Shown here one piece after another: positions 1-51,550 of a stretch of 64,000 nt of DNA. The notes under the pieces are model-generated. The model searched no databases. It was not told the DNA's origin and was given only the letters and a program-made list of their open reading frames with translations. The stretch is from assembly GCA_003427395.1 (NCBI GenBank), contig BFEA01000007.1, positions 4,050,601 through 4,114,600 of the forward strand, in the 5' to 3' direction. This stretch comes from Chara braunii (taxonomy: Eukaryota > Plantae > Charophyceae). The first letter of the stretch is position 1; every line of letters begins with the position of its first letter. The translations under genes were made by a program, and so were the position numbers.

Positions 1-703
1 GTGCCCCGCCGCTAGAGAACGCGGGCCGCAGGACGCAGTAGGTGGTAAGGAATACACCAGTGGGGGCGACGCGTTCGGCGAGCTGAGGAGCACAGGAGCA
101 TAAAGATGAGTGGTCTCAACTGGTGAAGGAAGAGAGCGGGCACGATAAGCGCCACCAAGCAACAAAGTGGCGCCGTTGCCGGGGAAGAGTTATCTCCGAC
201 GGCCGCGGCCGGCTCGAGAACTGCGGGTGAAGGAGAACCGGCGTGACAGGTAGTGGTGGGGTTTTCTCCGGAGTTTTTGGCACCAAGGTTTCGGCTTTCG
301 GCATCGAGTTTTTTTCGGTATCGACACTTCCTTTTTTTCGGCTTCGTTTTCTACGGGTCTTTTCTTCGGCCACGACCTCCTTCGGGCCTACGCAGCAATT
401 CGAGACGACTTTTCCCTTGGCGGCATTTGGTCTTTTGATTGATATCGGGGTGAGGATTCTTTTGGGAGTCTTCTTTCGACATGGGGAAAGGGGTGCAGGG
501 CTTGTTTGGGGTGCAAGGGACTTGGGGTGTCGGGAACTCTCGGTTTTGCAGGTCTGCTCCGGCCCCGCTTGCGACTTCGGCCCTTGCTGCTCCAAATGAT
601 TCAGGTCAGTCTTTGCTGGGGAAAGTGACGTTTTTTTTTTAGTGTGTTTATTTCTAAAATCCACCAACTAAGAGGGAGGAACAGTTTGCTTGTGGGGGTT
701 TGG

Positions 704-1279
704 ATGAGGGTGAAGAACAACCAAAGGGGGGGGAGAAGGGCCATGAGGGAAAATAGGGTGATAGGGTCCGCACACGGGGGCGAGAGGGTGGACGCAAGGG
801 GGAGAGAGGAAAGGGGAGCTCAGGAGGGTCCGAGAGCGTTGTCAAGTTGGGATCCTAGGGGGTCGCCAAGTATCCTCGACCCACACGGGTTGTGGACGGC
901 ACCCGCGCGGGGTATATCTTCTGCGTTGGAAAGGGCTTCGCGAGAGGGGTCTGGGTTCTCGGGTTTCGGGCCACGCGAGTTGAGGACGGAGCCCTCTCGA
1001 GACACGCCTCCCTCAAGGGGGCGGAGTTCTCAAGCGGGGGCCGTTCGGGATTTGGGGGTGACGAGAGTGGTGCTTCGGGATCAGGGACAAGGGGGCGTAG
1101 AGACCTCAACCACCATTGTGAGCGAGGGGGATAGGGAGTTGCCTCGGGGAAGAGAAGCGAGCGATACATGGGGCGCCTTGGACGAGGGATCGGAGGACGA
1201 GTCTTGGGTGGACCGGTGCCTTGCCGATTTCTCGAACTCGGACCTCGGGGATTATTGGGACTATGAAAACGAATTTTGA
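704..1279 (+). CDS. Possible low-complexity G/R/S-rich protein with an acidic-aromatic C-terminus, upstream of the ORF cassette
   Basis: Open frame 644-1279 with first ATG at 704. It ends in ...EDESWVDRCLADFSNSDLGDYWDYENEF*. Same strand as the downstream cassette and followed by a splice-donor-like AAG|GTACGT at 1299. No recognisable homology. Confidence 0.3.
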   Translation: MRVKNNQRGGRRAMRENRVIGSAHGGERVDARGREERGAQEGPRALSSWDPRGSPSILDPHGLWTAPARGISSALERASREGSGFSGFGPRELRTEPSRDTPPSRGRSSQAGAVRDLGVTRVVLRDQGQGGVETSTTIVSEGDRELPRGREASDTWGALDEGSEDESWVDRCLADFSNSDLGDYWDYENEF

Positions 1280-1885
1280 AGGAATCAAGGACCTCAAGGT
1301 ACGTATATGTAACTGCTTAACCTGAGAGACCCTTCCGAAAGCTCCGCTTCCCCACCGCTTTCCTTTGAATACCCCGATTTAATCTTTTGATTCCAAGAGA
1401 GAAAACAGTCAGCCGGTGGCGAAAAGGGAAGAAGGGAACGAAGTGAGAAGGGTTCACGATGCGGATGGGAGGGAGTAGACAGGCTAGTGATCTCGGATCG
1501 ATAGGCGGATAAAGTCCTGGGACCCGGGTAATTCCACGCTCGAGGTGGGACGAGTAGGGGCGTGGTTCCGGATAGGCTAACTAGGACTAGGGGTCGGTTC
1601 GGTGGGAGACATAGGGCACGGGTGTATGACTTCGGTTCGATTCCGGAGGAGGGGTTGCCACCCTTCTTCGGGGATAACCTGTGTTCGTGGCTAGTCCTTA
1701 TACCTGAAAGTGGGAGGACCTTTCAGCGGGGGAGGGCAGGAAGGTAGCCAAGTGGGGCGGCGTTCCTTCTCTGGTCCATTTGATCCTGCTGGGCTCACAG
1801 ACACCTTCTTCTTGCAGGGTAGGGGTGGTCTCTCGAGTGGCCAAATAGTAAAAGTGACAAAAATATATTTCTTTGATTAGGGTGA

Positions 1886-2239
1886 ATGAACCTAGAAGCG
1901 GTCCCGGAAGGGATTAGCGTAAATAGTTATGGTGGGGTCGACGTGTGGTGTTATACCTTCTGCCTGTGGACGGGAGACTTCGACGTCGCCATCTATGTAG
2001 AAGAGGGGCGAGATCGGGGGGAGGATTTCCTCCGCGGATGGGAGGAGGCAGTAGGCAACTCTCGCGCGGAAAGAGGGGAGCTGCGAGGGTACGGGTTTAG
2101 ATACTTCTACTCACTAGGGTACCGGATTTATCCTAGGGGAGGACAAACCGCGCCGGTGATTCCGGACGCTTACCTCGACGGATCGGACGGGTGGAGAATA
2201 TTGGTCGCAATCATAGCGGAGGTAGTGGGGCGCCTATGA
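1886..2239 (+). CDS. Family-1 small protein, copy A (117 aa, unknown function)
   Basis: Intact ATG..TGA ORF. Clear paralogue of the next two ORFs (GGVDVWC, LWTGDFDVAIYVEEG, WEEAVG, YFYSLG, PVIPDAYLDGSDGW). Acceptor-like TTTCTTTGATTAG ends at 1880. Confidence 0.7.
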   Translation: MNLEAVPEGISVNSYGGVDVWCYTFCLWTGDFDVAIYVEEGRDRGEDFLRGWEEAVGNSRAERGELRGYGFRYFYSLGYRIYPRGGQTAPVIPDAYLDGSDGWRILVAIIAEVVGRL

Positions 2240-2593
2240 GCTTAGGGGTTTTGGAGTTTGAGCCGACAGGCATTAGCGTGGGAAGCCATGGGGGTGTAGA
2301 GGTATGGTGCTACAACTTTTACCTATGGACCGGGGACTTCGATATAGCACTTTACATAGAAGAAGGGACTGACCGAGAGGAAGCCTTCCTAAATAGTTGG
2401 GAAGAAGCGGTTGGCCATGCTCGGCTGGAGAGGGAGCTTTTAGGGGGCTATGAGATCAAATATTTCTATTCGCTAGGGTGCCGTACTTTCCGCCGAGGGG
2501 AACGCCCCGGTGATTCCGGAGGCGTATCTGGATGGGTCAGACGGGTGGAGAGTGTTGGTGGCGATCATAGAGGAGATAGTAGACAATATATGA
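2236..2593 (+). pseudogene. Family-1 copy B, frameshifted near 2500
   Basis: ATG 2236 overlaps the copy A stop (ATGA). MSLGVLEFEPTGIS...YFYSLGCRTFRRGE, after which the conserved PVIPEAYLDGSDGWRVLVAIIEEIVDNI* continues in another frame. The 215-aa ORF 2191-2838 in the track is an artefactual B+C fusion. Confidence 0.7.
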
Positions 2594-2955
2594 GCCTAGG
2601 GGTTTTAGAGTTTGAGCCGGGAGGCATCATCGTAGGTGACTGTGGGGGAGTAGATGTATGGTGCTTCTTGTGGTCCGGTGATTGGGACATCGCCCTCTAT
2701 GTAGAAGAGGGGACAAATTTAGGAGAAGGTTTTCTTAGTAGTTGGGAGGAGGTTGTTGGCCTGACGCAGCTAGAGAAGGAACTTTTGGGGGCTTACGAGA
2801 CCCGATATTTCTATACGCTAGGTTACCGTACCTTCTGACAAGGAGAGCGGCCCGCCCCGGTCATACCAGAGGCCTATCTCGACGGGTCCGACGGGTGGAA
2901 GGTATTGGTGGGAGTCATTAAGAAGATAGTGCAGAGCCAGGGAGGGCCTGGTTAG
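2590..2955 (+). pseudogene. Family-1 copy C, internal stop at 2836
   Basis: ATG 2590 overlaps the copy B stop (ATGA). After the TGA at 2836 (Arg in copy B), the frame continues QGERPAPVIPEAYLDGSDGWKVLVGVIKKIVQSQGGPG*. Confidence 0.7.
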
Positions 2956-3691
2956 GATTGTGGAAGCGGGAGTAGACGGCAGAGTGAAAATCGAGAAGGC
3001 TGACCTTCTCAAAGAACGAGAATGCTTTAGTGTTCCCTTGAATCATCGTACGGAGAGATACCTGGCGGGGCGTGAGAGAGGGGTGAAACTTGAGAAGGGA
3101 GTCTTTCTCTGGGCATGGTTCGCCGTAGGCATTTGGGAAGGAGATCAGTGGACCAGGAATAGACCTAGGAACGGGGGGAAGGCCCAACGAGTGGCATTTC
3201 GTGCCGAGGGCACGGTCTATCTAAGTCGGGAGGCGTGGGTTGAGTACGTCACCCACTGGGCCTTAGGGTGGTATCGGACGGACCACTAAGAGTTACGCGC
3301 GGGGCCTATCCTGAGGCGGATCTTCGAGGAGGTGCCCCTTCAACATAGCCTGCCTTTCCGCTTGAGGGTGACTTGCGTCAGGGACGAGGAATATCCTCGA
3401 GCTGCGGGTTGCGTCCAAGCTATATTCCCTTCTCATGTCTCTAGGAGTGTGTGTGGAGAGGGGACCGCGTACGAGAAAGTCGTGAGGTCTATAAGGCGGG
3501 AGAGAAGGAGAGGCCATTCCTTTCGTTCACTCCATTGGTTTTATTCCTATTGTGTGGACAACCCGGTCCCGTATGGAGTTAGAGCGGATCGGATCTGGGA
3601 GAGGATCTCTCTGGAGTCAGAAAGAGACGGTGAAGGTGGGCGAGACTACCGTTACCAAAGGGTGTTTGGAGTACGCCAGAAGGTAGGATAG
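2939..3691 (+). pseudogene. Family-2 protein copy D (~250 aa), internal stop at 3287
   Basis: Track ORFs 2960-3289 and 3332-3691 share one frame separated by a single TAA. Motifs GVFLWA, EGTVYLSREAW and LHWFYSYCVDNPVP are shared with E, F and G. Start codon uncertain (AGG at 2939). Confidence 0.6.
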
Positions 3692-3696
3692 AGTGA

Positions 3697-4380
3697 ATGG
3701 TTCTATTTGACCGGAGCATTGGTAGGTTTGTTGAGTCCTCTCTAGACGAGCGAGGAGTGTGTAGCTTAGTTCCAAGCAACGGGAGAATCCCCGATTGGAG
3801 AAGGTTAGAAGGAGGGGAGATTACAGTTGGAGGAAATTTCGTGTGGGTAGAGTCGGAGGCGGAAGAGAGAACGGTTGAGGTGCGTCTTAAAGTCACCTCG
3901 ATAATCTTCGTCAAGCCGGAGGCCTGGTCGAAGGTTATTGTACCCTTGGTCTTGGGCCAAGGGGGTGGGCTGGACTTACTAATCGGAGAGGCTAGAGAAG
4001 TCAGAAGGAGGTGGATAGATAGGGTCTGGGAGAAGTTTGAGTTTGTGGCGGCAGAGGCGGAGAGGTTCGCTAGGGCAGGCAAACTCTTGAGGGCGAGTTA
4101 CCCCGTGACTGTGTGGATCCCGGACTTTGTGTTCTCAAGTAAGAGCGAGGGAAGAGTGGTGAGACTCCTGAAAAGAGGAAGGAGTTTGGGATTACCACTT
4201 GGGGCCCTGTGGACACTGTGCACGCATTGTATCAATCCGGGAATCCCGCCACGCAGGAAACTTTGAGGTATTTTTTGGAGATTGGGGTCCCTGGAAAAAC
4301 CCTTTACCGTCTCACCGGAAAGATACCGCCAGTGGGTTTTCAAAACGGTGTCGGTAGATGGTAAGATTTGTGCTCAGTGA
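3697..4380 (+). pseudogene. Family-2 copy E, probable internal stop at 4264
   Basis: Motifs GNFVWV, TSIIFVKPEAW, LWTLCTHCINPGIPP. The frame continues past the TGA at 4264 (GIFWRL..., aligning with SIFERL in F and RIWERI in D) to the TGA ending at 4380. Confidence 0.6.
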
Positions 4381-5086
4381 GAACAGGGCGGTAGAGGCGA
4401 TAGAGGCCAGTAACGCGGGTAAAGTCTTGATCCCAGGAGACCCTCGCGTGACGCCCTACTGGATGAGCGTTAAGAAATTCGGAGTCATCCGGGAAGGCGC
4501 CTACATGTGAGTTCGAGCTTGCAGACTCACCTGGAAAGAAGGAGTGCAAAGAGGAGGTCCGCCTGACCTTGGTCGGTTCCTGGAGATTCGGGCTACGATT
4601 TTTCTCAACGAGGAGACGTGGACATAAATTTGGAGGGGTTTGGTAATTGGCCGAGAGACCCATACGGAGTACCGTGAGTCCGCGAGGCTGGTAGCAAACA
4701 ATCTGGTACTGGTTGATAACGAAGAGGGGACCTTCGAGTCGTGGACGCAGGTGTCCTTCGTCGAACCAGGCGAGGTCCCTCGCGTGTCCGGAGTCCTCCA
4801 CGCGGACCTGCCCCATTTCCTGACACGCTCATTCTTAAGAGACCCGGAGGAAAGAGTAGTGGCAGTACTTAGAGCCGCTCGGGAGTCCGGAGTGCGGACG
4901 AGAGGATTGTTCTGGCTCTATACGCGGTGTGTGGACGCTGGGGTTCCCCCAAGGGGAGAGCTAGCCTCTATATTCGAGAGACTGAGGGAGTTTGAGGGGA
5001 TCCGAGCTCACGTCGCGAATGTCCCACACGCCCGCCTCTTCGGGGAAGAGCAGGTGGCTAACAGGCGGGGGTACGAAGCTCGATGA
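4358..5086 (+). pseudogene. Family-2 copy F, internal stops at 4508 and 4625
   Basis: ATG 4358 is in frame with track ORF 4640-5086. Motifs GAYM*V, RATIFLNEETW, LFWLYTRCVDAGVPP. Confidence 0.6.
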
Positions 5087-5828
5087 TAAGAGGGATTCTA
5101 GGAACTCTTTGGGCCTCAATAGAGTCCGTGAGTGGGGAAGGAGAGGTTGTCCAAGTCTCATTACCCAAGGAAAGTCAAAGGGATCCGACAAGGGTCATTC
5201 GAAGGGAAGTAACCGACATCCGCCAAGGGAGAGCATTTGTTCGGTCGACGGTGAGCAGCGGAGAGGGGTTGGTGATCGGAGAGGCCACAGTGTTCCTTTC
5301 TAAGGATGGCTTTCTAGAGGTAGTCCACAACTTGAAATTGTGAGAGGACCCGCTTGTAGACGCACAGGCGATTCAAGAGCGTCTAGAGAGGCTTGTGGAG
5401 GAGGCAAGTCCTCGAGAAGAGTACCTTAGGATCTATCGAGTGACCTACGCGGGTTGGGAAGAAGTACCTCGGTTTTTTGACAGTGACCCCGTAGGACTCC
5501 CTCGTTTCATCCTTGAGCGAGTTTACCCCTCATAAACGACCAGGAAGGCAGTGGAACGTAGGATCTCGATCCTGAGCCAATTTCGATTCACAAGGTCGGA
5601 CATGCATTCCCTATTGACTTGGTGCCTTCAGAGTCCATATGAAGACAATTGGTCGTCTCTAGAGGGTCTGGCTATGCCTTTGAGGGCTAGGGACAACATG
5701 TGAAGGTGTCAACCATCACCTGGAGGTACTTAGGAAAGATCTATGAGGCGGGGTTAGAAGGATTAGACCCCTCGGATCTCATACGGGAAGCTATAGCGTG
5801 CCGTCGGAGAAGTTTGAGGCATGAGTGA
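5083..5828 (+). pseudogene. Divergent family-2 copy G, several stops and a probable frameshift near 5700
   Basis: ATG 5083 overlaps the copy F stop (ATGA). Motifs GRAFVR, EATVFLSKDGF, MHSLLTWCLQSP in one frame across stops at 5341 and 5533. Confidence 0.5.
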
Positions 5829-6021
5829 GCCCGACATCGATGAATTGGTGGGTCTAGAAAGGGTTAGGGCGGAGTTATACCGAATATTGACTCTTTGCTG
5901 GGAAGAGGAAAGGAGGGCGAGGCCAGGAGCCTTACGAAGGATCAAGTTGTTAGAGACTACCGCAATAAAAGTACTAGATGATTTAAAAGGGGAACTACTC
6001 TCTAAGAGAGCAGAGGCATGA
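5821..6021 (+). CDS. Small helical protein H (66 aa)
   Basis: Intact ORF overlapping the end of G. Its stop again overlaps an ATG (ATGA 6018-6021) just before the sequence switches abruptly to AT-rich DNA. Confidence 0.5.
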   Translation: MSEPDIDELVGLERVRAELYRILTLCWEEERRARPGALRRIKLLETTAIKVLDDLKGELLSKRAEA

Positions 6022-6589
6022 GCCTGAATGTTTTTTTTTTTTAAATGCTCAAATAGAAAGCACGTGCTCTATTCGGGGTAAACTCTAATGCATGCGCTTT
6101 TAAAAGAAATGATTTATGATTCGATTAGAAAATATACATATATATATTGAATTTTAATTTTAAATTTTAAGCATTTTTTAAAATTTTTAAGGATTAATAA
6201 GAATTAATTAATCAAAATTTTAAGTTGTTTTACACCTTTCAATTTCTGGCACGAGCATCGTATGCCAGTTCAGTGTAGGGAAGGTCTCAATATTTTGGAA
6301 TTTTTATTCCGATAAATTTCACTCTCTTCGCACACCATGAAAAACCACTCGAAGTTTTTGAAAACAAATTTAATAGTATTTCAATTTTTTTCCTTTTAAT
6401 TTATAATAAAAAACAATTAATTACTATAAAGCCATTTTCCTCCGCCGGTTTCACCGGCGTAGAGTCTCAAAAGTTTCTAACAAGCGAACCACCCAACTTT
6501 GGTTTCGTTATATATCGACCAAATTTGCTCGATTCGGAAGTTAAAATTGAAAAAAAAAAAAAAAATTGAACTTGGAATAATATACCCTA

Positions 6590-7625
6590 CTAGGGTTTCA
6601 CTCCATTAAGGTTTCCGCTTTGAGATCGCCCGCACGTGCACCGTTAACCCTTCTTGCCAGAGAAAATTTTGCATACTTATACATAGGTATATATTAAATA
6701 TTTCCAACGGGCTAGATGTTTTTATTGATCCTGTTTGGATATAAAAAAATAATTTTTTTAATAACTTAATTACCCTTAAAGTTGGTTGATCCTTTCTGTA
6801 CCTGCCGCACCCGATGTCTGTTTTTCCCGAAACTTGTCTTAAAATTTGGGGAAAATTCTCCCTTTCAACTTGCCTCTGGCGAGTAGTCACAATTTCCCTC
6901 TAACTTTGTTTATAAATTAAAACGATAAATAATTTTTCTTAAACTATTTTTTTGTATCAATCAAATCTGTATCTCGTGCCCCGATGCTCAGCTCCGAGCA
7001 CCGACGGTCTCAAAATAATAAGACAAACATACCTGCCAACATATGTTGGCCAAAGTCGCCCGCTATAAGAGTTAGAACCAAAAGAAGCCCAAATTTCCAA
7101 TTCAAATTAATTTTATCAAGTAGGGTTTTAAGTCATTAGGGTTTTGTTTTTGCGCTCGCTTACACGCGGACTATCGAACCTTTTTGACTAAGGAAACCAT
7201 GCACCCTTACTCTCAGCAGAACAACTGAATTTTTTGTCGGATTACAATTTTTTATTTATTCTTTTTTGATATTTTAAAAATTAGTAAAGAAAATCTGAAT
7301 TCGACAATTTAATTTCAATAGAGCTTATTGGACGGTATACCAGTCGCATAGGACGTCGGTTTTCCCGAGTCACATCTTAAAATGTCAGGAAAATTTAACC
7401 AAACAACTTCGCTCTCCGTATGCGGTTTCTATTTCTGCCCCAATTTTCAACAATATAATTTATTTTTTTTAAATAAAATTATTAATAAAGATGAAAAAAA
7501 TCAATAAATTTAGTATCTCCAGTTTCGGTGGTTAGTAGTTACTTCCAAAGGTCTCAAAAAGTTTTGAACAACGACAGGGTCATCTTTGATTAAGGTGTCG
7601 TTCGCTAAAAAGTGTCTGGATCTTG
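6590..7625. repeat. Degenerate ~530-bp direct duplication in an AT-rich block, probably the body of a non-autonomous DNA element
   Basis: Colinear shared words at ~530-bp offset: TAGGGTTT..CATTA.GGTTT (6591/7122), TTTTCCCGA...TCTTAAAAT...GGAAAATT (6822/7360), GGTCTCAAAA (7006/7550). Confidence 0.45.
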
Positions 7626-9479
7626 AGTTATGCAAAAAAAAGTTATTTAAAATAAAGATTAATGAGTAATCAAATAATCAATCAATAAGTTAATTAGTCT
7701 GTGTACCCCCGTTTGGTGGGAAAAGGCCGAGGCCTTGGGGGTGCAATCCCCTCCCCGGCAACAACACCAAAGTTGTGAGGGAAACATGAGGAGAGACTTC
7801 TATTGTTCGTTGAACCCAATGGCTATTGCGTCTGTCACTTGCTGCGCCCGCTTCTGGGGTTCTCAACTGCCGGTAGGGTGTTGTTTGTTACACACCCATT
7901 TCGAAGGTTAGGTTTGGAAACTTGAAAGGTACAACCGGAAAAGATGGAAAATAAATAAAATGATTTAGACTATTCGAGCGAGTAATTATGAAATCAGGGC
8001 TCAGAGCCTGCACAAACGTTTCTCTGTTGAATCTCGTATTAAAGAGATTAAAGTTTTTATTTATTTTAGTATAAGGATCAAGCAGAAAATAGTACGGTAG
8101 GAAAAGACAGAGCAGCAACAACCACTCACACCACAAAAAGGGTACGGAAAATGCACTCAGCAAGCGATATAAAACCGCTGATTTTGCACTATTGAGCGAG
8201 CTTGTTAACTATGCGCTTGTTCAAGGAGAGTCGGGTGCTAATGACTTTGCAAGATCTCGTCGGATGGGTGGTCGTCAGTCCTTTTTATTTCAACATCACG
8301 ATATTCTTTGGCCTCGCCCTACGCAATGCCGTCCTCCATTGGTTAGTTACCAGGGGGGAAAAAAAAAAAAAAAAAAAAAAATAAACCCTTAGTTTATTCT
8401 CGAGCGGATACTCAATTTTCACTGGTATCATCCGATTGGCTTATCTGTTTGAGGAAATGTTCAGTAAGCCCACGACCTAGGGAATAAGGTTTTTCAAGCA
8501 AGTTATCCCCTCAAGCTAGCCTGATTGACTGTTTGGATTGCTACATTCCTCAGTCGAGCTGGACACAGGTACCTGCTCGGTTCAGGGAAATTTGACTATG
8601 CCCTTCCCATTGAAAACAAAAGTAGGATGAGTAGTTGTGTCATGAGCTAGAACGTAGGAGGATTCACCGTCGTTTTCTCTCCTTTTATGCTTCACGGACC
8701 GAACTGTGGTTTCACCAATACAATAAAGGGAAAGGATCATCAAACGAAACATGGGATGGTGCACTTGCATGCTTGGTTTCTCTCCTTGACCCGCCAGAGA
8801 GGGGAAATGTCATGTACATGTCGCTGTCCTCTCTTATTCACCAAAGACTCTTGATACGCAAACTAATTTTGGTCAGCCCGTTAGTTTGTTAGTCAAGCTT
8901 GAATGTACCTGATCGTGATCAGGGCTGTTTATGTGTTCTAGAAAATAAGATTAAAATACAATAATAATAAAAGAAAAACCTTCTCTCGTCTTCACGAGGA
9001 GTTTCACTCTTTGTTGGTCGAACTAGAATGTACCTGTTCGTGATCAGGGTTGTTTATATGTGGATGAAAAATCAGATTAATAATGAATTAATTAAAAAAA
9101 AACTTCTTTTTTTACTCTCTGCCTGAAAAGTCTTCCCTCTCCTCCTAGTCCCGATTGTCTTATACATTTTTTTCTCGCTCTCTATTGTCCCTCTCGTTAG
9201 CCCCCCCCCCCATGCTCTTCTTTAATCCAGTGCATTGCCTCACGCCCTCCCTCAGCTCTTAATCATTCACAATCGTTCGGATACATACTTACCAAGCCAT
9301 CCTTAGATTAGAAGGTCCTACTTGGGAAGGGGATTTCTGATTTCCGTATTTTACACCCATGTTTTCATCCAGAGAAACGACCGATCCGCCTGCTGTCAGT
9401 TCACATGCGTGAAGCCGGTCTCAAGTCCTCACTCGTGTTTACTCTGCGCGTTCGACACAAATGTTCTTTTTTTCCCCCT

Positions 9480-9915
9480 GAAGTAGTTGTTTTCATTAAC
9501 ACCAAGAATGACAGTTCATCTTTTTACCGAAAATAGTTGTTCTCATTATCAGCGAAAGTAGTTGTGTTCATCATCAGCGGGATGACTATTCCCATCACCA
9601 GAGGGAATAGTTGTTCACATCTTCAAAAGTTGTTCTTATTTTCAGTGAAAGCGGTTTTGTTCATGATCAGCGAGATGGTTATTCTCATCACTAGCGGCAG
9701 TGGTTGTTCACATCTTCACCGTAGACAGTTGTTCTCATTTCCAACGAAAGTGGTTGTGTTCATGATCAGCCAGATGGCTATTCCCATCACTAGTAGCAAT
9801 GGTTGTTCACATCTTCACCGCAAACAGTTGTTCTCATTTCCAACGAAAGTGGTTGTGTTCATGGCTACGGGGATGGTTTTTACCATCACTGGCAGTAGTG
9901 GTTGCGCTCATCATC
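9480..9915. repeat. Degenerate ~90-99-bp tandem repeat, about 4 units
   Basis: Recurrent AGTTGTTCTCATTT..AACGAAAGTGGTTGTGTTCATG...CCCATCACTAG...GGTTGTTCACATCTTCA. Confidence 0.8.
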
Positions 9916-10449
9916 ATCGAGATGGCTGCATTAGATCACTCCCGCCTGTGTCTACCCTGTGCTCCTCGATCCGCACTCCTCTATGCTCGCATGAGGAAGC
10001 AGCCCTAGCCAGTAGTCCATTGCTGGGTACGCCTGTTGTACTCCTGCGCACCACCAGCTGCAAGTCTGCATTATCAGGACCTATGAATGAAGTATAGTGT
10101 CCATGTCCCTTCGCCCCTTACATCAGCTCGACCTCCATGGCTAGTTGCTCGTTGACAGCGCTACCGTCTTCCCCCGAACATAATGCATATGTGTTGTATT
10201 CGAGTTTTCCAAAACAACGGGTCTTTGGAAAGTTAAACTTTTTTCTTCAAACACAAGGGCACTTTGAACATAACGCATATGTGTTATATTTGAAGAATAT
10301 GCATATGCATTATATTTGAATTTCACGAAGAGAAAATGATTGTATTCGAATATAACCTTTTTTTCCCCCGAAGGTCAACGCCTGCTCCGTCTTTGCCCTG
10401 GTGAATGGGACAGGCCCATGCAGGCCCGTAATCACAAATCACTGCCCGT

Positions 10450-12113: not shown

Positions 12114-12164
<51 letters not shown>

Positions 12165-12645
12165 TATTATCAACTCTCTTATTTTGATTTCCTCCTTCTG
12201 TCATTTCGTGAGGAATCAACGATTCGTTTACGAATCTTGAGTGGAAACTGGTGGCCTAGACTGAATCGACCTCTCGCTTATCACCTTGTGTCTGAACTGT
12301 TCGACCGGGCGTCGCGCAGCAGGACCCCAAAACAGGGGCAACCCGCGGCCGTATCGGTAGGAGACTCATCACCTCCTGTGAGGGGACATGAATCATCTCC
12401 TTGCGATCGGACATGAGTACCCTTCAATTTTTGGAGTTCAACATATTAGTAACCTGGGGTATTGGTCCCTTGCTCCTTTTACATTAATTATTTTTATTCT
12501 ATTTTATTTTATTGCATTCTATTGATTTTAGAACTACAGGTTACTAATATGCTGAACTCCATAAATCACCCCATTAAGAACACAGGGGTCACGATATGTA
12601 ATGATCCTATAAAGAATGAGAGAAGGTGAGCCAGACCTCGTTGTC
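11282..12645 (+). repeat. Repeat C, copy 1 (interrupted by the hAT-like element)
   Basis: Direct repeat of 55025-55685 (AGCATCATTTTTCCTTTTC...TATCAACTCTCTTATTTTGAT...CAACCCGCGGCCG...GAGAGAAGG..CTCGTT). Confidence 0.85.
11340..12107. mobile_element. Non-autonomous hAT-like DNA transposon (768 bp)
   Basis: Imperfect TIRs TAGGGTCACC / GGTAACCCTG. 8-bp TSD ATTATAAT (11332-11339, 12108-12115). GC-rich subterminal repeats and an AT-rich core. The homologous site near 55050-55080 is empty. Confidence 0.85.
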
Positions 12646-12662
12646 GCTCCGACCGTGCGCGC

Positions 12663-12822
12663 GTGCTATACCTCTCACGGCGCCCTGTGACAAGTCGGGA
12701 CGTCGCGAGGTACAACTTACCTTTACCCAAGGGGGTGTCACCACCCTTAGGTAGGCGTATCCTTGCTGAGCTACCGGTCCACATGCGAAGGTTTTTACCG
12801 GCCTTTGTAGAGGTAGGTCGGC
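12663..12822. other. Conserved multi-stem motif, copy 1
   Basis: Shares CTTACCT..., AAGGGG.TGTCACCACCCT.AGG, GGCGTATCC and TTG.AGAGGTAGGTC with 23078-23220 and 29481-29640. Nested complementary segments. Confidence 0.65.
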
Positions 12823-14913
12823 CGACGGCGTTTTTTCGATCGCTGTAGCACAATACGGGGTACGCGTGGTAAGACGTTTAGAACTTATTCGTTAGATATC
12901 CAGGTCGAACTTTTAGAAGGCCGTCTATTTCCTCTTCTGCTTCCAAAACATTTTATTTTTTTTGTAATCACTGTGATCAAAGTACCAATCAAACCATTTC
13001 ACTACCACGGACATTCTATTCTACTTGACATATGACTGAACATCAGATTGTATAAAACTTATATAAGACTTATAATGAATATGAAGGTATTACCGCTGAG
13101 AACCCTTAACACTTTCACAAGTGTTATGTGTCCAAGACTCTTCAATATATCAAGTCCAGTTCAATCCCAAAATCACGCACAAAACATGCAAGGATAGTTC
13201 ACATGCCGTGCACTAACGGTGTCAACCATCAATCCACACCTCAGACATTGTCCCTCACTTCCCAAACCATGTATGACAGCTCTATCTTTCCTGAGATGTA
13301 AGCCCAGCCTCCTCAGATTTTTTCAAAGGACCCTTGAGAGTGACTAGGACCATTTAGGCAATGACCACATGTGACAGTTTTATTGACCACAGGGTTTGAC
13401 TTTAGACGTGGGTATGAAGTCAAGGGGAAAAAGTTGAATCGGCAATGACCGACATGTTATCGAGAGATAACGGAAAATTTGAGTCCTCTTTGTAAGACTT
13501 CTCCTTCAATTACAGTAGATCAAAACAAGGACCTGCACACACAGAGGTCAACAAAGACTCAACACCCCCACTCGATTTCTCACATGTAGATATCGAAGGG
13601 TCAAACCCTTAGATCTGGTCTGTGTGCTTTTGGGATCAACATCCCAAAGTCTATCCCTTTAGCTTCTACCTACCCTAAGTTGTCTGTCACTCTTGCCCTT
13701 TTTGTTCAAGGAGTCTCTTGCCTATGTCCTAAGTTGTCTTAGGGAACTCATATTTCTCCTTACTCTCAGTACTTGTATTTTCTCTCCTGCGGATAAACAC
13801 ACCCTTTGTTGCTTATGCGGTAGTCTAGCTAAGATTAATTCACGTCATTTCGCGGTTTCTCCTTGAGGAGGTTATTAATGAACTGAGTCTACGCGGAACT
13901 TTTTCTTTTCTACTTTTTTTTCCCCGCGGTACTTATCTTTTATTTTGCTTCTTTTAAGACTTTTAAAGTTCCTCCCGCTGGAGCACTCCATTCTTCATTT
14001 CTCTTCTTCTTGTCCTGACATACACAAGTAGTGGGTTGACTCACCCGGGAATTTTCCACTACTTGCTCAATTCCAGACAAAACGGTTAGTCAGATAAGTA
14101 GTCGAGTAGTTCCACGAGAGCACTCAACCACTAGCCTGTAAGGTAATAAGGAAACCGCACGACAGTTTCCCGTAACCAGCGTTGGAGTCAAACAGACGTT
14201 TCATCAATTTGTTACTTTAGTCAGATGAATGGCAAGGTAACTTCGCACGTTGAGTATGCCATCATCCACCTTAGTTAGCCCATGCAAGCAGTGTGACGAC
14301 CCCACGGGAGCCTCCATTACACAACTTTGTCTCTCAATCCCAAGCAAACAAGGTCCCTTCTCGGTTCTCCTAGGTTCCTTCCTTTCATCAGGCAGGATTA
14401 TTACTTCAATCGTATACCCTTTTTCATTTCGATACACTTCAGTCATGAAGAAAGTACAAACAGTATCTCACACACCCATACAGGCAGTCCAGTACAAAGT
14501 TGTAGCTTCTATGGGTATACGAGAACGGAATAGGTGACGCGTACCTCATGGTTCCCTGCCTCCAGAGTTCCTCCTGAACTCCGGCAATGCTCCCGCAATC
14601 GCCCTGTTGTACCTGCCTATTGGGTCATCCTTTTCCACAGAGCAGACATTTTTAATTTAGAGAGGTCATACTATTTCTAACAGATGTCAATCAACAAAGA
14701 ACGGTAATCATAATAATATTTTCGGACAGATAAGGATAAAAGGTGAACGAAGGGATTGGATCAAGGGAGAATGAAGGGGGATGGAGGAGGCAGGCTCCGT
14801 CACACGGTGACGATGTTCCTCTTCTCTCCAATGCCCCGCACTCTCCTCCTCTCTTACGCTTGTTTATCTCATGATGTTTCAATAGTGAAACAACAACCAA
14901 TAATAATAATAAC

Positions 14914-14962
<49 letters not shown>

Positions 14963-15589
14963 TTGTCGGTAACACTCTGTCAAGTATCTTGAATAACTTT
15001 TCAATGAGCAAGCAATCAATGGAAAGGGGAAAAACGTCTTATCGATGTACCACTTGTCATAAGTCTTCCCTCCATTTCCACTTCCTTTTACCCTTTTGCT
15101 TTCCCCTCACGGTCCTGGGTACAGACTCCCTCTCACTGCTCAGCACGCCTGCTCTTTAGAACCATGTGTGTGTATGCTTGTTACTCAACTTGCTTGCAAG
15201 GCCGTACGGGCACATGCTTGCTGCCCTGCATTTCCAGCCATTGTCCACCAGTGCCCCGTTGTTCGGCTGCAGCACACGTCATCCTGCTCCTGCGCGCGAG
15301 TGTGGTGTCAAGGCTGCTTTCTCTGCGGTCCGCAGCCATTCTGTGACATGTCAGCCTCAAGCAGCGCTTGCCCAAGGTGCAGCGACCCATGTCCTTGGTT
15401 TAGCCGCCCGGTGCAGCTACTTCCTCTGAGAAAACCTAGGGTGAGGCCCATGCTGCACTTCAACTAACTAGCCTGTAGCAACTGTCTGAGAACCACTTTG
15501 GAAATCGCTTAGGTAGGGGTTTTTCGTAGACACTTAGGTCGTCCCTCACTTATGGCGGCACGAGGCTGGTTGTGGTATCCGCATGTTAT

Positions 15590-15619
15590 TCAATAATAAT
15601 AATAAAAATACAAATCACG

Positions 15620-15670
<51 letters not shown>

Positions 15671-15696
15671 GTAATAATAATAATAATAATAATACA

Positions 15697-15727
<31 letters not shown>

Positions 15728-15741
15728 TAGTATAAATAACG

Positions 15742-15820
<79 letters not shown>
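15590..15820. repeat. Long interrupted (TAA)n tract (mirror copy 52615-52800)
   Basis: Seen directly. Other tracts lie near 11310, 12110, 14900, 16890 and 18255 (TTC), with mirrors in A'. Confidence 0.95.
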
Positions 15821-15824
<4 letters not shown>

Positions 15825-16886
15825 TATTAATATTAGTAGTTACCGACTTCAATCCACAAAACCACTTTAAAAGTTAGGAAGTTTGGCATCATCCGGAAAG
15901 CGAAACTTCATTGATACTAAATTAGCAGGGGACCAGAGCATTGTTTCCGAATGCTAGTGAGCATATTATCCCTTCCACTGGCATACGATTCCAGAGTCTT
16001 TTTTTCCTTTTGGAGCTTTGCGCCCAGACTACCATCACTCAGCTATTACCAGACCACGAATCAATAGCGCAAATGTTGAAGTCAGCAGCAGGGCTAAATT
16101 ATGTGAATAATAATGATTTTGTAGACCATCGCCAAGACCAGGTATGTGTTATCACATCATCAACCTCCCCTTTCTCTCTTCTTGTGTCATGTCTGTGTTT
16201 TGTTTGTTCTGTGTTTGTCTGTCTGCTTGATATTCTTTATTTTGTCCACATGTGTCTCGATGATTTGTGTGGTTGTTCGTCTGTTTATTTCTACTTGTAT
16301 GCTCATGTAAGTTTGTTTGTCTGTTCGTCCATTTGTCTGTGTTGGTTTTGTATGTCTGACGCTGCCTGTTGGCCTGAAGCTGTCAGTCTATACCTGTCTG
16401 TTACCGCATGGGACTGTGTGCACTACGGAGATGGAAAAGGGTCAGACCTTCGGCCGCACAAGCAGAAATCAAGAGGCAACGCCCAGTCATTCATTCATTC
16501 CTGCGTCAGCCATGCGGAAGTGTTGTTACAATGACTCGTGCGAGGTGGTCTGCAGTGAGCTCGAAGACGAAGTGGGCGAGAAAGAAGAGCTTAGCCATAG
16601 CGATAGGTTAGAAGCGGCCATGGCCGCCATAGTCGTAGTTAGAGTTTAGCGTGTGTGTGTGTGTATGTTCAGAATACCTCGTGTGGGATATTCAGGGTGA
16701 TCTTGTGTATGGGAACAAAGAGAGTTGTGTGGGCGCTGAGTCGCCATAGCCATCAAAGTGAACTTGAATCTGAAATGTGTTCTCGGTTACCGTATCTCTG
16801 AGATGTAAGTGGGCGCTTGTCGCCAGTCTGCTGCGCACATGTTTGCACGCATAAGAAGTGTGAATGAAAGCGAGTCTGACTTTCAC

Positions 16887-16947
<61 letters not shown>

Positions 16948-18985
16948 CAATCAATGCTAATGCAAGGAAGATGAGCAATAGTGAACTTCAACAATCAAAC
17001 AACATCATATACACAAGACCAGATAGTCGTGACCTCGAACCAACAACAAATTTGCCTCAGGAGTTTCACCAAATAAGAAGACACCAAGAGCTCATAATTG
17101 ACAATGCTGGTAAAGTCTCATTATCATCATTAATGAAGAACCAATGTTGATATCCTATCTGGTGCTCGTCGCCCAGACTACAGATGACAGATCCTATCTA
17201 GACTAGACTACAATGCCGAATGATGACGACAACAATGTTTCCGAAGTACAAGCATACAACGACCAATGTCGCATACTTCCAGCACCAGGTGTGTCTCTTG
17301 CCTCACTCACAACCTCGATCCCCCAAACACAAATGCCACATAGACCCAAAAGACCATCTGCGCCTCATCCTGCATAGCGCAGGGCTGCTTGGTTTAACCA
17401 TATATATACATATATATACATATATATTCCTAACATGCGAGGTTGGTTCCATACACACACACACACACTCTCGCACACGTACACGTATACATACACACAC
17501 AAGTGAGTACACACTCACACACACACACTCACAAATAGCAATGCTTGTTTCCCAGTTATAGTGCTAGATTCATTCGATTATTTTCATCCTATCTGTTCAA
17601 TTATAGTGAGTCGATCGTGAGACTCACATGCACACACACACACACACACACATATACTTGTATATTAGCGCACTTTCCTTTAGTGTAGCGGTAGATTTAT
17701 TCCATTTTGTTATGCTATCGATTGAAGTAGCGTGAGTATGGTCGCGCGGTTGGAGACTTACCTGTTCTAATTCGTCATGATGTGCGGCATACCGAGACCA
17801 CGGCACGGGGATACGACCGGCATCAACGTGCGTTCCAATCATGTCGGGCGGATGACGAGCCCAACCTTATGTTGCCATCATCATCCGCAAGGCCAGGTAC
17901 GTTGCTCTTTCCCCTTCTCTATCCCTCTACTTTTTTTTTTTTTTCTTCTTCTTCTTCTTCTTCTTATTATTATTATTATTATTATTATTGCGCCCTAATT
18001 CCACGCATGTTTCCTCCTTCACTCCCGATATGCCGCACGCCAATTTTAACCCCTGCTTTGTCGCTAACCCCATATCCGTTATTGCGCGCATGTTTCTCTC
18101 TCGTCGCGCTGCACCTGAGCTCTCCTTCCTCCTAGTTCGCGCTATGTCTCCTTCCTCCGCCCGATTTTCTCCCTTCCGTTCACTACCCCTGCCGTGTAGT
18201 CGACCTCCTTCCATTTGTGTTTACTTTCCTCCCTCGCACTAGTCCCTTCCCCCTTCTTCTTCTTCTTCTTCTTCTTCTTCTTCTTCTTCTTCTTCTTCTT
18301 CTTCTTCTTCTCTTTCTTTCTTCTTCCTCTCCCTCTTCTCCTCCTTCCTTCTTCTTCTTCTTCTTCTTCTCCTTCCTACGTGCTTCATTTCTCTCTCCTT
18401 CAAGCCGCGCCCCTCTTCTTCTCCTTCTTCTTCCTCCTCTTCTTCTGCGAGCCTCGTTTCTCTCTCCTCCAGGTCGCGCTACTCTCCTTCTCCTTCGCGT
18501 GTCGTCCTTGTCTTCTCCCTCGCGCGCTCCACGTCTTCTCCATCACGCGCTCCTCTTTTGCTATCCCTTGCGCACGACTTCCTCCTTCGCCTAGCTCTTG
18601 CGCGCGCCACGCTCTTACTCACGAACTCCGCGCTGTTACGGAGCTAGGTACGGCCTTGACAAGGCTCGCCCGAAACATTGTCGCCGCGGCGGGGTATCGA
18701 ACATTTTTCTCGGGAACAAATTTGCCCAAGATTCGAGGCAAATCCATTAAGGTAAGTTCAAGTAGAATCGTACAAGAGCAAAAGAAAGATAAAAAATAAA
18801 GAAAAAGAAACGAAAAAGACTTAACGAGAAATGCAAGAGAAAAAACAGGAATTTCAAAAAGAAAAAGAAAAAAAACAACTCTAACAGAATCAAACCTCTA
18901 ACTACCCTAGCTTGCAGCTTGCTAAGTGGTGGGCCCCCGTTATAGCAGGGGCTCATGTCTCAACTAACTTACTAACTGTAACTAA

Positions 18986-19026
18986 ATCCTAATACGGAGG
19001 TCGTGGGTTCAAGTCCCGGTCGCCCG
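18986..19026 (+). promoter_or_regulatory. tRNA-like 3' half / B box convergent with the hairpin RNA gene (mirror copy near 49652-49692, minus strand)
   Basis: GGAGGTCGTGGGTTCAAGTCCC resembles a tRNA variable loop plus T arm. No D arm or acceptor stem is recognisable. Confidence 0.5.
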
Positions 19027-19058
19027 GAGTCGGGTTAAAAACTCAGCTCCCTTATAGC

Positions 19059-19147
19059 AAAAAGGGAGTTAGCTTAAGGGCCGGGGCAGATTCGATCCCT
19101 ACGTCTCGAGCTTAACAATCTGCCCCAAATCCTACTGAGCTAGCTCC
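19059..19147 (-). ncRNA. Putative Pol III hairpin small RNA (~89 nt), in repeat A
   Basis: TATATA at 19179-19184. A-box-like TAGCTCAGTAGG, B box GATCGAATC, terminal stem GGAGCTAGCT/AGCTAACTCC, inner stem GGGGCAGATT/AATCTGCCCC, T5 terminator. Confidence 0.6.
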
Positions 19148-22100
19148 TACTTCAATTAGAAGAGGAGCTACTCAGTTCTATATAGAGCAGCGGGGCTTGG
19201 TCCAACTAGCGGTCCGATCCATTTACTTGTTTGTCCGCATGCCTGTCTGAGTGTTTGTCGGCTCGAGCGTGTGTGTGACCCGCAGGGGTACTTGATTCAT
19301 CTGTTGGCCCAAAGGGCCAGTACTTTGCCTGCGGCCGTGACATTGAGGGTTGCCGCGGGGAAAACATTCAAGTGGCGGAGAAAATGCCCGCGATACTGAA
19401 AAACACACTCAAGTAGCAGGCAGGCCGGCACCACACCAAGTAGAGGTGGGTGTGCCTGGTACTCGAGGCTGAGCAGAAGAAGACAAAAGTTGGCATTTTA
19501 GAGGCCCAGTACAAGTAGAGAGGCGGATACTAGGTCAAGTAGCTTGAGTCAGGACCCTGTGCAGACGATATCTGAGTCTACAATAGTGTCCTCCTTCTGC
19601 AAAGGGACGGAGGCACCAGTTGTTTCAGTGCTACGTGGTCCGGGAGTCGCCACCCAAGAGGCAACTTCCTCTCTACATACGGGAGGCTGAGCGGTAGCCT
19701 CCACCTCACTCACGACATACGAGTAAGAACATATGTATCGATTGCCGTTACATATTATGGTTGGCAGTGTGTTTCTTTTGGTTGTCATGTCCTCATGACC
19801 GGGGTTATATTAATTTTTTAGTCGACTTTAAATTTTTTCGGCGGTGCGACCTGCCGACTTTCCCATACATGCCGGTCCGACGCCCCGTCATTCATTCTAA
19901 TTCATTCTCGCCTTACCGCCTTACCTTTTAACGGTTTTTAGATTGTGGTCGCCTCATCCCGTGCGACATTTCTTATTCTTCTTCCAACTCTCCGGCCCTC
20001 GCGGCCGAAGACTTTTAATTTTTAATAACCCTTACCTGTTGTCGCATGCGTCGTATCACCGCGTATGATCACCTAGCAGCCTCGTATTGAATGGTCGAAA
20101 AAATTGCTTCACGGCATCATGGTAAAAATTCTTACTTTTCACTTCAGGTTGTTTCCGGTATGGTATCCGTCCATCCTGCATCGAATGAAAAATTATGAGC
20201 AAATACCTTTGTAAGGGTGTTTGCTCCGATAGTCTTTCCGGACCCCATTCAGCGACGTCCCTGTCGCTGGGGAATCTAAATGCAAACAAAGGTCTTCTGA
20301 CGTGACAAGTTGTTAAAATCCGATTTCCTGGATGGAGTTGCGGTTTGAAGACTCTCAATGTACCCCTTGGTGCGTCCATACTGCCAGAATTTTAACCTGC
20401 GTCTACCACATACTCAAAAAAATTATAATATGAAAGAAAGATTATTCCACATGACTCAAAGTGGGGATAGTCGATCTGTACTACAGTTACAGAGGTCACC
20501 AAGGAAGAAAATTATAGCCTCTCCCCCCAACTTTACACTTTATTTGCTAGGATCTCGTTAGGTGTCCAAAGAGTTAGAAATCATAATTGAATCCTACCCT
20601 TTGGACGCGGGCTTTAACCTAAGTCAAATTATACCGTCCCACCTGAAGTCTAATGCGAGGGGATCGACTCCCTTGGTCTCAACCCACCACAGTCGATTAA
20701 TGAGGTTGGATCTGCGGCCCACCGTGTTGTTATTTTAACGGTGATACCTGTATTAGTTACGCAATACAGGATAATGTCATCCTATCAAAGTATCTAGACC
20801 TGACTCTTGATCCCTCGAATATCTACCTGAACCGATACTATCATTAGGGTGTCCCTCCCCTCAAGTATTAGCTCTAGGTCGTAATCGGAAGGCCCGCTTC
20901 CTAGTTGTACTTGGCCAGCAGCCCACGCTGGAGTTACGTCCCAACGATGTCAATTTTTCACCATAGGCTTGGTAGTTTTAAGTCCCTCAGACTGACCTCC
21001 ATACGTGGATGAGCGATGATCATTTAAAAATATACATATGAAAACCAATTTGACCAAATAATTTTTCTCCGCTCGTCAGCTGTCTTTGAATAGGTGAACA
21101 ACCCCATTGAATGTATATATGAAAGAAAACAATTTCAACAATAAGAAATGATTTAACATGATTGTCATATTTGTCTCTGATCGAGGGGCATCGTCAGAGC
21201 CACTTAGGGGTCGTTCCTCCCAGACCTCCATCACAGGCTGGATAACACGTCTCGGGGATCTTTTGTCAACAGAAAAAGCCAAACAACATATCCATAAAGA
21301 AAGTATAAAAAATATTTGTTTGAACCTTTGTCTTGTCAGAATGCAGAAAAAAAATTCATTTCATTCATAACATACATTTCCCTGACTTGCAAGGTTTCTC
21401 AAATGCATCAGAAATTTTAACTTTTTCACACCGCCTTTTCAGGGTCTCTTTCAAAAATATTTATATAGAACATGGAAAAAACCGACCAACAATGCAAGAC
21501 ATTCTCAGACTGCATAAGTCACTTTTCATCCTATCATTCTTTAATATTGAGGCATTTTTCTGAGTATCATAGTTCAAGACTTGATAACACAGACTGTACA
21601 AGATACTCATTTCATCAATCAAAACCAAACACTAGACCAATCTCAATTGTGAAAGTGAGAAGTGTCCCTCGTCGGCATACCTCATATATAGAAATCATAT
21701 ATGACTTAGGAGAAAATTTAGTTGAATCCATAATGTCGAGTCAAAAACAGTTTTGAAACTCGAGTTACACGTCTCTCTTATCCTCTATTGTTATCGTACA
21801 CCTGCTGAGTCAGAAAAATATAAAGGAGATAATGAAATTTCATGACACCTCATATATCGGAGTACATACTCTATGACACCTCGTTTATCTTATTCACTAA
21901 GGTACAACATTGTCTCTAAGGGAAATAAATAGTAACTACGTCATGTACCTTACCTCATTATGGACTACTAGAGTACAATATCTTGGCTGAAGAAAAGAAA
22001 ATGTGAGAGTTCTATTTTAGAACTCAAAAGAAGAAAGAGACTAAAGTGTCCCTCACCCATCAGTTAGGCGCAATCCTTACTTAAATTTCCTATAATTAAG

Positions 22101-34730: not shown

Positions 34731-34779
34731 GAAAGACACTCTCAGTACTACACCCCCATCTTTTAATTTTTCTTGTAAG

Positions 34780-51489: not shown

Positions 51490-51550
<61 letters not shown>

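Follow-up and report, generated by a model that had tools for sequence, protein, structure and literature searches.

The block of open reading frames (ORFs) at 1886-6021 probably belongs, as the 5' accessory region, to a large Ty3/gypsy LTR retrotransposon of the stonewort alga Chara braunii that is decayed and cut before gag in this copy. A single RNA driven by the LTR probably served for translation of the nine ORFs, with leaky scanning as the main mechanism. Positions refer to the window, the 64,000 nt stretch of contig BFEA01000007.1 that was analysed. The analysis shows a primer-binding site (PBS), a multicopy family and purifying selection on two orphan protein families that have expanded in tandem, together with homologues of ORFs A and E linked to gag or pol in Chara gene models, a scarcity of methionine and weak start contexts. 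The features are as follows.

1-164 (+): presumed 5' LTR, 3' end; ends in ...CAACA immediately upstream of the PBS; multicopy in DNA runs
168-185 (+): PBS TGGCGCCGTTGCC(GGGGA), tRNA-Asp/Asn type, 3 nt past the LTR end; sole copy in the window
186-1885 (+): leader of 1.7 kb with 10 AUGs; 1336-1869 has the deepest coverage in the DNA runs
1299-1817 (+): candidate intron from a motif scan; donor AAG/GTACGT, pyrimidine tract-CAG acceptor 68 nt upstream of ORF A
1886-2239 (+): ORF A, intact frame of 117 aa, family 1; shares 77% identity across 70 aa with the N-terminus of C. braunii CBR_g19376
2236-2593 (+): ORF B, family 1, 358 nt, with a frame break near 2503
2590-2955 (+): ORF C, family 1, single internal stop (2836)
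2948-3691 (+): ORF D, family 2, without an AUG in this copy; presumed start CTG at 2948; single internal stop (3287)
3697-4380 (+): ORF E, family 2, single internal stop (4264); 59-61% identical to parts of GBG85253.1, GBG66890.1 and GBG85750.1
4358-5086 (+): ORF F, family 2, internal stops 4508 and 4625; 71% identical to P0012, which reads through both
5083-5703 (+): ORF G, the most divergent member of family 2, internal stops 5341 and 5533
5700-5828 (+): ORF H, 42 codons, the weakest of the nine; presumed GTG start (GTGA overlap with G)
5821-6021 (+): ORF I, 66 aa, intact
6018-6026 (+): presumed start of the next ORF (J) and cut point of this copy, from another copy and a spanning contig

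The PBS motif is named as the Asn/Asp type in an excerpt of bioRxiv 10.64898/2026.03.20.713144. It adjoins the presumed LTR end and lies 1.7 kb upstream of the ORF block. The rest of the 5' LTR is beyond the window edge, the second LTR is absent from the window and the 3' part of the element is missing. Searches against Rfam (1-9000) and with ARAGORN gave no match. As in a dispersed Ty3/gypsy family, sequence from all of 1-6020 occurs in many copies in the organism's DNA runs. In run X1, 3570 contigs mapped to 1-8000, most of them <95% alike, and summed depth was 96-3397 in the bins from 1 to 6141 vs 14-34 in those from 6142 to 7476, a contrast that is a rough sign of many copies and not a copy number. 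The copy tables covered the best-supported 40 of 960 rows for the comparison of 1-8000 and the best-supported 40 of 77 rows for a second comparison with other copies.

Another copy in run X1 matches through 6022 and continues with 290 dissimilar letters. The GC content falls sharply near 6025, from 52-57% to 32%, and this abrupt step could suggest an assembly chimera or prokaryotic or phage contamination. However, a 1821-nt contig from run X1, identical to the window at 5932-7752, bridges the step, although X1 could itself come from the sample that was sequenced for the window. The same runs also contain many copies of the family, and scans of phages, prokaryote genomes and metagenomes returned no locus. 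The chimera or contamination reading, which the sequence-only reading had kept in view, is therefore highly improbable and is refuted as far as the data go.

Nine frames were found rather than the eight initially counted: H and I are separate, and no majority indel merges them in the other copies among the rows listed. Three are paralogues of family 1 (A-C), four are paralogues of family 2 (D-G), and H and I are small ORFs. The four ATGA overlaps reported earlier lie at 2236-2239, 2590-2593, 5083-5086 and 6018-6021, and the coding density of near 100% also held, with frames taking up 4131 of 4136 nt. At the remaining junctions there are overlaps of 8 nt (C/D), 23 nt (E/F), 4 nt (G/H, GTGA) and 8 nt (H/I) and a 5-nt gap (D/E). 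Of the 69 TGA in the block, 12 (17%) lie in ATGA, vs 4/9 junctions with this motif. One tandem duplication produced both A/B and B/C, so these two junctions are not independent, and the ATGA at 6018 opens just 8 codons because the element is cut there. The co-oriented block is real and beyond chance by the paralogy and selection tests, but D and H have no AUG here and B is frame-broken. As a result of the break near 2503, B and C read as a single 200-aa ORF in this copy.

The block contains seven internal stops. The view of these as decay was borne out for the five that could be compared, all of which are sense codons in another copy or paralogue; the stop at 5533 is missing in most other copies among the rows listed. 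A single transition accounts for just two of the five, whereas three need a transversion, so the proposal that all stops are one transition away and methylation-driven was not right. C>T/G>A ageing prevails overall (23 of 40 listed sites, with 7 of these 23 in CpG).

Paralogy among D, E, F and G scored 20-62 bits, and none of 1000 shuffles reached any of these scores. The membership of G in family 2 gave 20 bits with a leave-one-out HMM vs 4.6 for the best of 1000 shuffles. Relatedness between family 1 and family 2 was undetectable (probability 0.3%). Comparison of A, B and C gave pN of 0.15-0.24 vs pS of 0.53-0.94. Among the listed differences to other copies, 29 of 61 were synonymous vs 17.6 expected, a value reached in 3 of 2000 simulations. 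For ORF I the count was 10 of 13 listed differences; for ORF H it was 4 of 9, with 4 of 9 also in one shifted frame. These patterns show purifying selection on the frames. The copies, selection and paralogy support the original idea that these co-oriented genes once functioned and were organised to be read polycistronically, and that they form a multicopy family native to the genome.

A profile search of 1.84 billion proteins gave eight matches: four C. braunii gene models, one unnamed F homologue and three unrelated repeat proteins. GBG85253.1 contains an E homologue, a gag-like region and an aspartyl protease, and GBG66890.1 contains an E homologue with a gag-like region 89% identical to that of GBG85253.1. 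GBG73359.1 has three distant family-2 domains and RNase H/integrase, and GBG85750.1 fuses an E homologue to an unrelated DUF659 protein. The family-1 search found two matches, both C. braunii models with RT; one of the models, CBR_g19376, has an ORF A-like N-terminus followed by RT-RNaseH-IN. All named homologues are in Chara models, and 5/6 also carry gag or pol. Family 1 is also present in an unrelated repeat within the window. Gag-PR-RT-RH-IN is absent from this cut copy, and A and E homologues are joined to such regions in C. braunii models, which are ab initio joins and may merge neighbouring elements, as the DUF659 fusion in GBG85750.1 illustrates. No whole element was seen at the DNA level; the linkage to gag and pol is known from gene models.

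The sequence-only reading had also suggested an endogenous virus and advised a check upstream for LTRs or viral hallmark genes. The PBS and the presumed LTR end were found, but no viral hallmark was detected in Pfam, PHROGs, BFVD or IMG/VR. A remnant of an unknown virus, integrated into or captured by a retrotransposon, would account for the virus-like density and overlaps, the orphan proteins and the occurrence of family 1 in an unrelated repeat. The block is, however, assembled from tandem duplicates of two genes, lies downstream of an LTR-retrotransposon PBS and has homologues spliced to gypsy gag/pol in Chara models. Viral scans returned no locus, even though one stretch passed tblastn for A. 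We regard this explanation as very doubtful, while a viral origin of the founding genes is possible. Caulimoviridae are marked by a tRNA-Met PBS, a movement protein and no integrase. An endogenous pararetrovirus of this family does not fit, given the Asp/Asn PBS, the lack of a movement protein match in Pfam and the linked pol with an integrase-type region.

No family matched in Pfam, at the cut-off for A, C-I and the family-2 members, or in PHROGs. When A and E were each compared with proteins of near length, no homologue emerged among 12 and 776 candidates, and the ESM Atlas gave no usable match for these two queries. The AlphaFold models of both families, which were of low confidence (pLDDT 55 for family 2 and 49 for family 1), had a three-stranded meander followed by helices. 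A fold search of 48,161 chains found nothing above background; the best Z scores were 6.0 (rmsd 3.8, 85 aligned) and 5.6 (rmsd 4.3, 63 aligned), with none >=8. BFVD also gave nothing above background (best E 0.011). Cap-binding domains of arena/bunyavirus L proteins appeared at Z 4.7-5.6 amid unrelated rows and were not taken as evidence. The ORFs do not resemble env-like accessory ORFs, since the highest 19-residue hydropathy was 1.39 (no transmembrane segment) and they lie 5' of gag, not between pol and the 3' LTR. Tentatively, the products may be soluble helper proteins of small size, produced at low and graded levels, that act for the element against host control. ORF duplication with fast divergence would fit element-host conflict.

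Methionine is scarce within the frames. Internal Met accounted for 5 of 1347 codons in the block, whereas the gag-protease part of GBG85253.1 has 16 in 564 (P=1e-5), and each homologous accessory stretch contains 0-1 Met. No such scarcity is seen in the distant family-2 domains of GBG73359.1 (23/599). One Met of ORF F is common to P0012. Within 5430-5996, six of seven non-start ATGs read differently in most other copies (1.5 expected, P=0.0007, listed differences), compared with controls in the same stretch of 0/9 GTG, 0/4 CTG and 2/12 TTG. Out-of-frame ATGs numbered 6 in D-F vs 16.7 under synonymous shuffling (0/1000). They were not depleted in this copy in A-C (12 vs 11.1 expected), where some are common to paralogues, or in G-I (6 vs 5.0 expected), where most are private decay. 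The starts of A, B, C, E, F and G have a pyrimidine at -3, a bias that is weak across all eight AUG starts (6/8, P=0.06).

These features bear on how the ORFs would be reached. Leaky scanning of the type used by rice tungro bacilliform virus (RTBV), perhaps aided by reinitiation, appears more likely than pure termination-reinitiation because Met is scarce, six of seven non-start AUGs in 5430-5996 are missing from most other copies, pyrimidines occupy -3 at the first six AUG starts and the TURBS motif is not enriched. That motif, UGGGA 40-90 nt upstream of the stop, was present at 1/9 junctions (~1.3 expected) in this decayed copy, and no common hairpin upstream of the junctions was seen by eye. 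The calicivirus-type mechanism first proposed is therefore not favoured, and its other parallels, influenza B BM2 and SART1, use UAAUG at the stop/start rather than AUGA (PMC3542737, PMC5902531). It is unlikely that each ORF of the same element was reached by termination-reinitiation, promoted either by a sequence in cis or by a transactivator that the element encodes, comparable to TAV of CaMV. Overlap at 8/9 junctions with a 5-nt gap at the ninth, the calicivirus patterns AUGA and AUGnnUGA, the undepleted out-of-frame AUGs of A-C and the similar abutting of caulimovirus ORFs agree with it. On the other hand, it would not by itself require Met-poor proteins or internal AUG loss, and no TAV-like family was detected in the Pfam search.

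Another possible explanation is that the ORFs of the same element were expressed from nested spliced or internally initiated RNAs and that the overlaps reflect only compaction and tandem duplication of whole ORFs. The good donor and acceptor at the edges of 1299-1817, the splicing of Ogre and Bagy2 elements and the duplicate nature of the A/B and B/C junctions fit this. Acceptor-like motifs are present just upstream of A (1817, 1880) but not of the other starts, out-of-frame CAG is depleted (28 vs 42.7, P=0.004) and AUG avoidance is left without explanation, which makes this reading improbable. RNA run X6 had 291 reads from diverged copies, and over 2938-6141 the orientation expected of sense RNA prevailed by ~4:1. 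No spliced read across 1299-1817 was seen among the RNA reads compared, nor any read bridging two ORFs of a single transcript. On the part compared, X5 contributed 5 reads and X7 contributed 0.

Under the preferred leaky-scanning mechanism, ribosomes would pass the leader, which has 6 of its 10 AUGs outside the candidate intron, via splicing of 1299-1817 or shunting. A fraction would initiate at each weak AUG or near-cognate codon and the remainder would scan onward through ORFs that are nearly AUG-free, as in RTBV. Stop/start overlaps without a spacer may add some reinitiation, and Gag would be last in the queue in whole elements. Counting against serial scanning, nine starts over 4 kb would exceed the tested cases, which reach ~900 nt with three ORFs in RTBV and three or four proteins from a transcript.

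The array resembles the RTBV/badnavirus ORF I-II-III system (PMC5902531, PMC3542737) in its accessory ORFs upstream of the main polyprotein (capsid/RT in RTBV), its weak or non-AUG starts (pyrimidine -3 for A, B, C, E, F and G; CTG/GTG for D and H in this copy), its AUG-poor coding and its long uORF-bearing leader. It differs in belonging to an LTR retrotransposon with integrase rather than a pararetrovirus, and in spanning ~4 kb and nine ORFs vs ~0.9 kb and two ORFs. Compared with the internal-AUG clearance of RTBV, in-frame Met is scarce and D-I appear cleared, but the out-of-frame AUGs in A-C are at the expected level. The AUGA and AUGnnUGA geometry, with stops and starts that overlap or abut, is like calicivirus TURBS termination-reinitiation (PMC3542737, PMC5902531), whereas the lack of upstream UGGGA enrichment and the serial array, rather than one junction, are not.

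Sense extra ORFs at the 5' side are a recognised class in Ogre/Tat/Athila-type elements (Neumann et al. 2019, PMC6317226; Vicient and Casacuberta 2020, PMC7264820). The element is like these non-chromovirus Ty3/gypsy elements in its Athila-type tRNA-Asp/Asn PBS, large internal region and family-wide extra ORFs of obscure origin. Ogre has 1-2 extra ORFs in the portion of PMC6431247 consulted, and the surveyed eORFs have >=250 codons (PMC6317226; PMC7264820). In contrast, there are at least nine overlapping ORFs here, of 42-247 codons and mostly from two tandemly expanded families, and the PMD, Transposase_28 and Athila ORF-1 domains were all missing at the Pfam cut-off (A, C-I and family-2 members).

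No description of such an array was found in the literature searched, a scope outside which lay most subscription papers and the C. braunii genome paper with its supplement, the latter of which may bear on novelty. If read from one RNA, as is likely, the array would put many more genes on a message than known plant retrotransposons do. A more speculative reading, which we put forward as a possibility, is a true eukaryotic operon in Chara gypsy retrotransposons. Ribosomes on a single RNA would then make at least nine accessory proteins as well as Gag, scanning leakily and reinitiating in series across >4 kb, which goes further than any viral case tested so far. The members of both orphan families would be retrotransposon-borne factors that counter the host or activate translation and that move between element families. 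Plant LTR retrotransposons have been described with just one or two extra ORFs of obscure role. A nine-ORF array with signs of selection for polycistronic reading would be a natural test of the range of eukaryotic ribosome scanning and reinitiation. It explains chimeric C. braunii gene models that hide such ORFs, and it would supply a new set of candidates for proteins in element-host conflict from an alga closely related to land plants.

When stops were read as X, nine co-oriented frames were found in the block at 1886-6021, together spanning 4131 of its 4136 nt:

1886-2239, + strand, ORF A (family 1)
2236-2593, + strand, ORF B (family 1), frame break near 2503
2590-2955, + strand, ORF C (family 1)
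2948-3691, + strand, ORF D (family 2), without AUG
3697-4380, + strand, ORF E (family 2)
4358-5086, + strand, ORF F (family 2)
5083-5703, + strand, ORF G (family 2)
5700-5828, + strand, ORF H (small), without AUG
5821-6021, + strand, ORF I (small)

The sequence-only reading had described eight ORFs with ATGA overlaps. The four ATGA junctions were found, but nine frames were counted and the final ATGA opens only 8 codons. The other junctions are one GTGA, two 8-nt overlaps, one 23-nt overlap and a 5-nt gap. The + strand of the block is G-rich, and GC content is 52-57% across 1-6000 and then 32%.

The block is very probably the accessory region of an LTR retrotransposon. TGGCGCCGTTGCC lies at 168, 3 bases past the presumed LTR end (...CAACA), and part of the ATHILAfinder preprint (bioRxiv 10.64898/2026.03.20.713144) gives this motif as the tRNA-Asn/Asp PBS at the LTR-internal junction. 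In the organism's DNA runs, thousands of short contigs, mostly less than 95% alike, cover 1-6020, where summed depth is far above that of 6142-7476. One contig, identical to 5932-7752, crosses the right junction, in a run that may be the window's own source sample, and another copy matches the window up to 6022 and then continues with different sequence. Therefore, this copy is cut at about 6025, and the chimera considered earlier was not borne out. To its right, 6027-7722 is AT-rich and low-copy; a second, decayed PBS with the same tRNA type (7753-7770, - strand) faces the cut element, followed by a highly multicopy, LTR-like stretch. Elsewhere, the window holds another two large repeats that are related to each other (12127-20229 / 48432-55685, ~85-91% identity, mostly inverted) and a 93-99-nt unit repeated four times within a 171-aa ORF (9486-9916).

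The D-G profile, searched against 1.84 billion proteins, gave 8 matches. Four are C. braunii gene models and one is an unnamed F homologue; the other three are unrelated repeat proteins. In two of the models, an E homologue is joined to a gag-like region that both share, and one of these (GBG85253.1) runs on to an aspartyl protease. The third carries three distant family-2 domains, then gag-like, RNase H and integrase sequence, and the fourth is chimeric, fused to a DUF659 protein. Of 7995 candidates, the family-1 profile matched 2 proteins. Each is a C. braunii model that includes RT, and one opens with a 77%-identical A homologue, followed by RT, RNase H and integrase. We infer, from predicted proteins rather than at the DNA level since the gene models are ab initio, that accessory ORFs and gag/pol would belong to one element. 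Every named homologue of the block ORFs is from C. braunii, and viral, phage, prokaryote and metagenome scans found no locus for the block. These scans, the PBS and the homologues joined to gag/pol argue against the endogenous virus first suggested, and against a contaminant. Residues ~176-380 of GBG85253.1, between the E homologue and gag, are Met-poor and have no match in the window; they probably represent an additional accessory ORF that this copy no longer has. A decayed gypsy pol with RT, RNase H and integrase regions lies at 32484-36041 (- strand), sharing 38-42% identity with the pol linked to A and family-2 domains in the Chara models.

ORFs A, B and C arose by tandem duplication (DNA identity 63-73%; pN 0.15-0.24 vs pS 0.53-0.94). 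The paralogues D, E, F and G have diverged further, each scoring 20-62 bits against a profile of the other three, which 0/1000 shuffles reached. The two families have no detectable relationship to each other. No Pfam, PHROG family, Atlas cluster or fold stood out for the block ORFs, the fold comparison using low-confidence structure models of the family 1 and 2 proteins, and none has a membrane-length hydrophobic stretch. Among 61 ORF differences (the best 40 of 77, plus 21 in-ORF ones from the best 40 of 960), 29 were synonymous vs 17.6 expected, a value reached in 3/2000 simulations. The synonymous share of those listed was 10/13 in I, 8/20 in G and 4/9 in H, and H is the least certain of the nine.

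Seven internal stops interrupt the ORFs, of which all except 3287 and 5341 had a copy or paralogue for comparison. Stops 4264, 4508, 4625 and 5533 are read through in other copies, and the site of 2836 is sense in paralogues A and B. Methylation-driven transitions had been proposed as their origin. All five compared stops are indeed sense elsewhere, and C>T or G>A changes in the window copy make up 23 of 40 differences (the best 40 of 77) against a background of 16-24%, but a single transition explains only two of the five stops and just 7 of the 23 changes lie in CpG. The excess is general ageing with little CpG preference.

AUG is scarce in the block. Internal Met occupies 5/1347 codons, compared with 16/564 for gag-protease sequence from a related element (P=1e-5), and ATG occurs 35 times vs 49.6 in dinucleotide shuffles. 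Of the seven non-start ATGs within 5430-5996, six are absent from the majority of other copies (1.5 expected, P=0.0007); the changes listed there seldom hit GTG, CTG or TTG, and none creates an ATG. The start of ORF I is unchanged among the best 40 of 77 differences. Out-of-frame ATG is depleted in D-F (6 vs 16.7 expected); no depletion was seen in this copy in G-I (6 vs 5.0) or in A-C (12 vs 11.1), where decay or design could alike be responsible. Position -3 is a pyrimidine at each of the first six AUG starts, a tendency that is weak over all eight (P=0.06). Sections of PMC3542737 and PMC5902531 describe leaky scanning in rice tungro bacilliform virus (RTBV), with weak or non-AUG starts and AUG-free ORFs over ~900 nt, and calicivirus reinitiation, which depends on the TURBS motif (UGGGA). 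UGGGA was found 40-90 nt upstream of only 1/9 stops, which is chance level. Together with the AUG scarcity and weak starts, this disfavors the calicivirus-type stop/start reinitiation of the sequence-only reading, and the block resembles RTBV more, at four times the length. On balance, we lean toward a single RNA carrying all the ORFs, which ribosomes would reach by scanning.

The leader (186-1885, between the PBS and ORF A) contains 10 AUGs. A candidate intron at 1299-1817 would take out four of them; no spliced read was found for it. One RNA run gave 291 reads, from diverged copies, with a direction of ~4:1 as expected for sense RNA if the library is of the usual stranded type; the others gave 5 reads and, on the stretch compared, 0. 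No single transcript across the ORFs was seen in these three runs. Summed depth within the element peaks (up to 3397) over non-coding leader sequence at 1336-1869, where RNA reads run both ways; this stretch is a candidate packaging or splicing signal common to more families. The leader also holds a putative 191-aa sense ORF (704-1279, + strand) with no Pfam match and a 183-codon antisense open frame (119-667, - strand).

A 6.9-kb repeat, present as two inverted copies (41249-48099 / 56399-63256, 88.5%), contains two distant family-1 domains (61107-61793 and 62618-62956, + strand), with inverted copies at 42716-43391 and 41515-41904 (- strand). Its 229-aa ORF reaches 11 bits against the A/B/C profile (0/1000 shuffles) and shares 50% identity with the N-terminus of C. 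braunii CBR_g4049. Since this repeat is unrelated to the element, family 1 moves between elements.

Extra 5' sense ORFs are a recognised class in plant gypsy elements according to a passage of PMC6317226, and Ogre has one or two in the account excerpted from PMC6431247. Literature searches, with the C. braunii genome paper outside their scope, found no nine-ORF array or Chara accessory ORFs described. The array is a variant on this known class. Because complex retroelements carry accessory genes (part of PMC7264820) and these ORFs have duplicated and diverged fast, their products might, tentatively, be soluble helpers acting for the element against host control.
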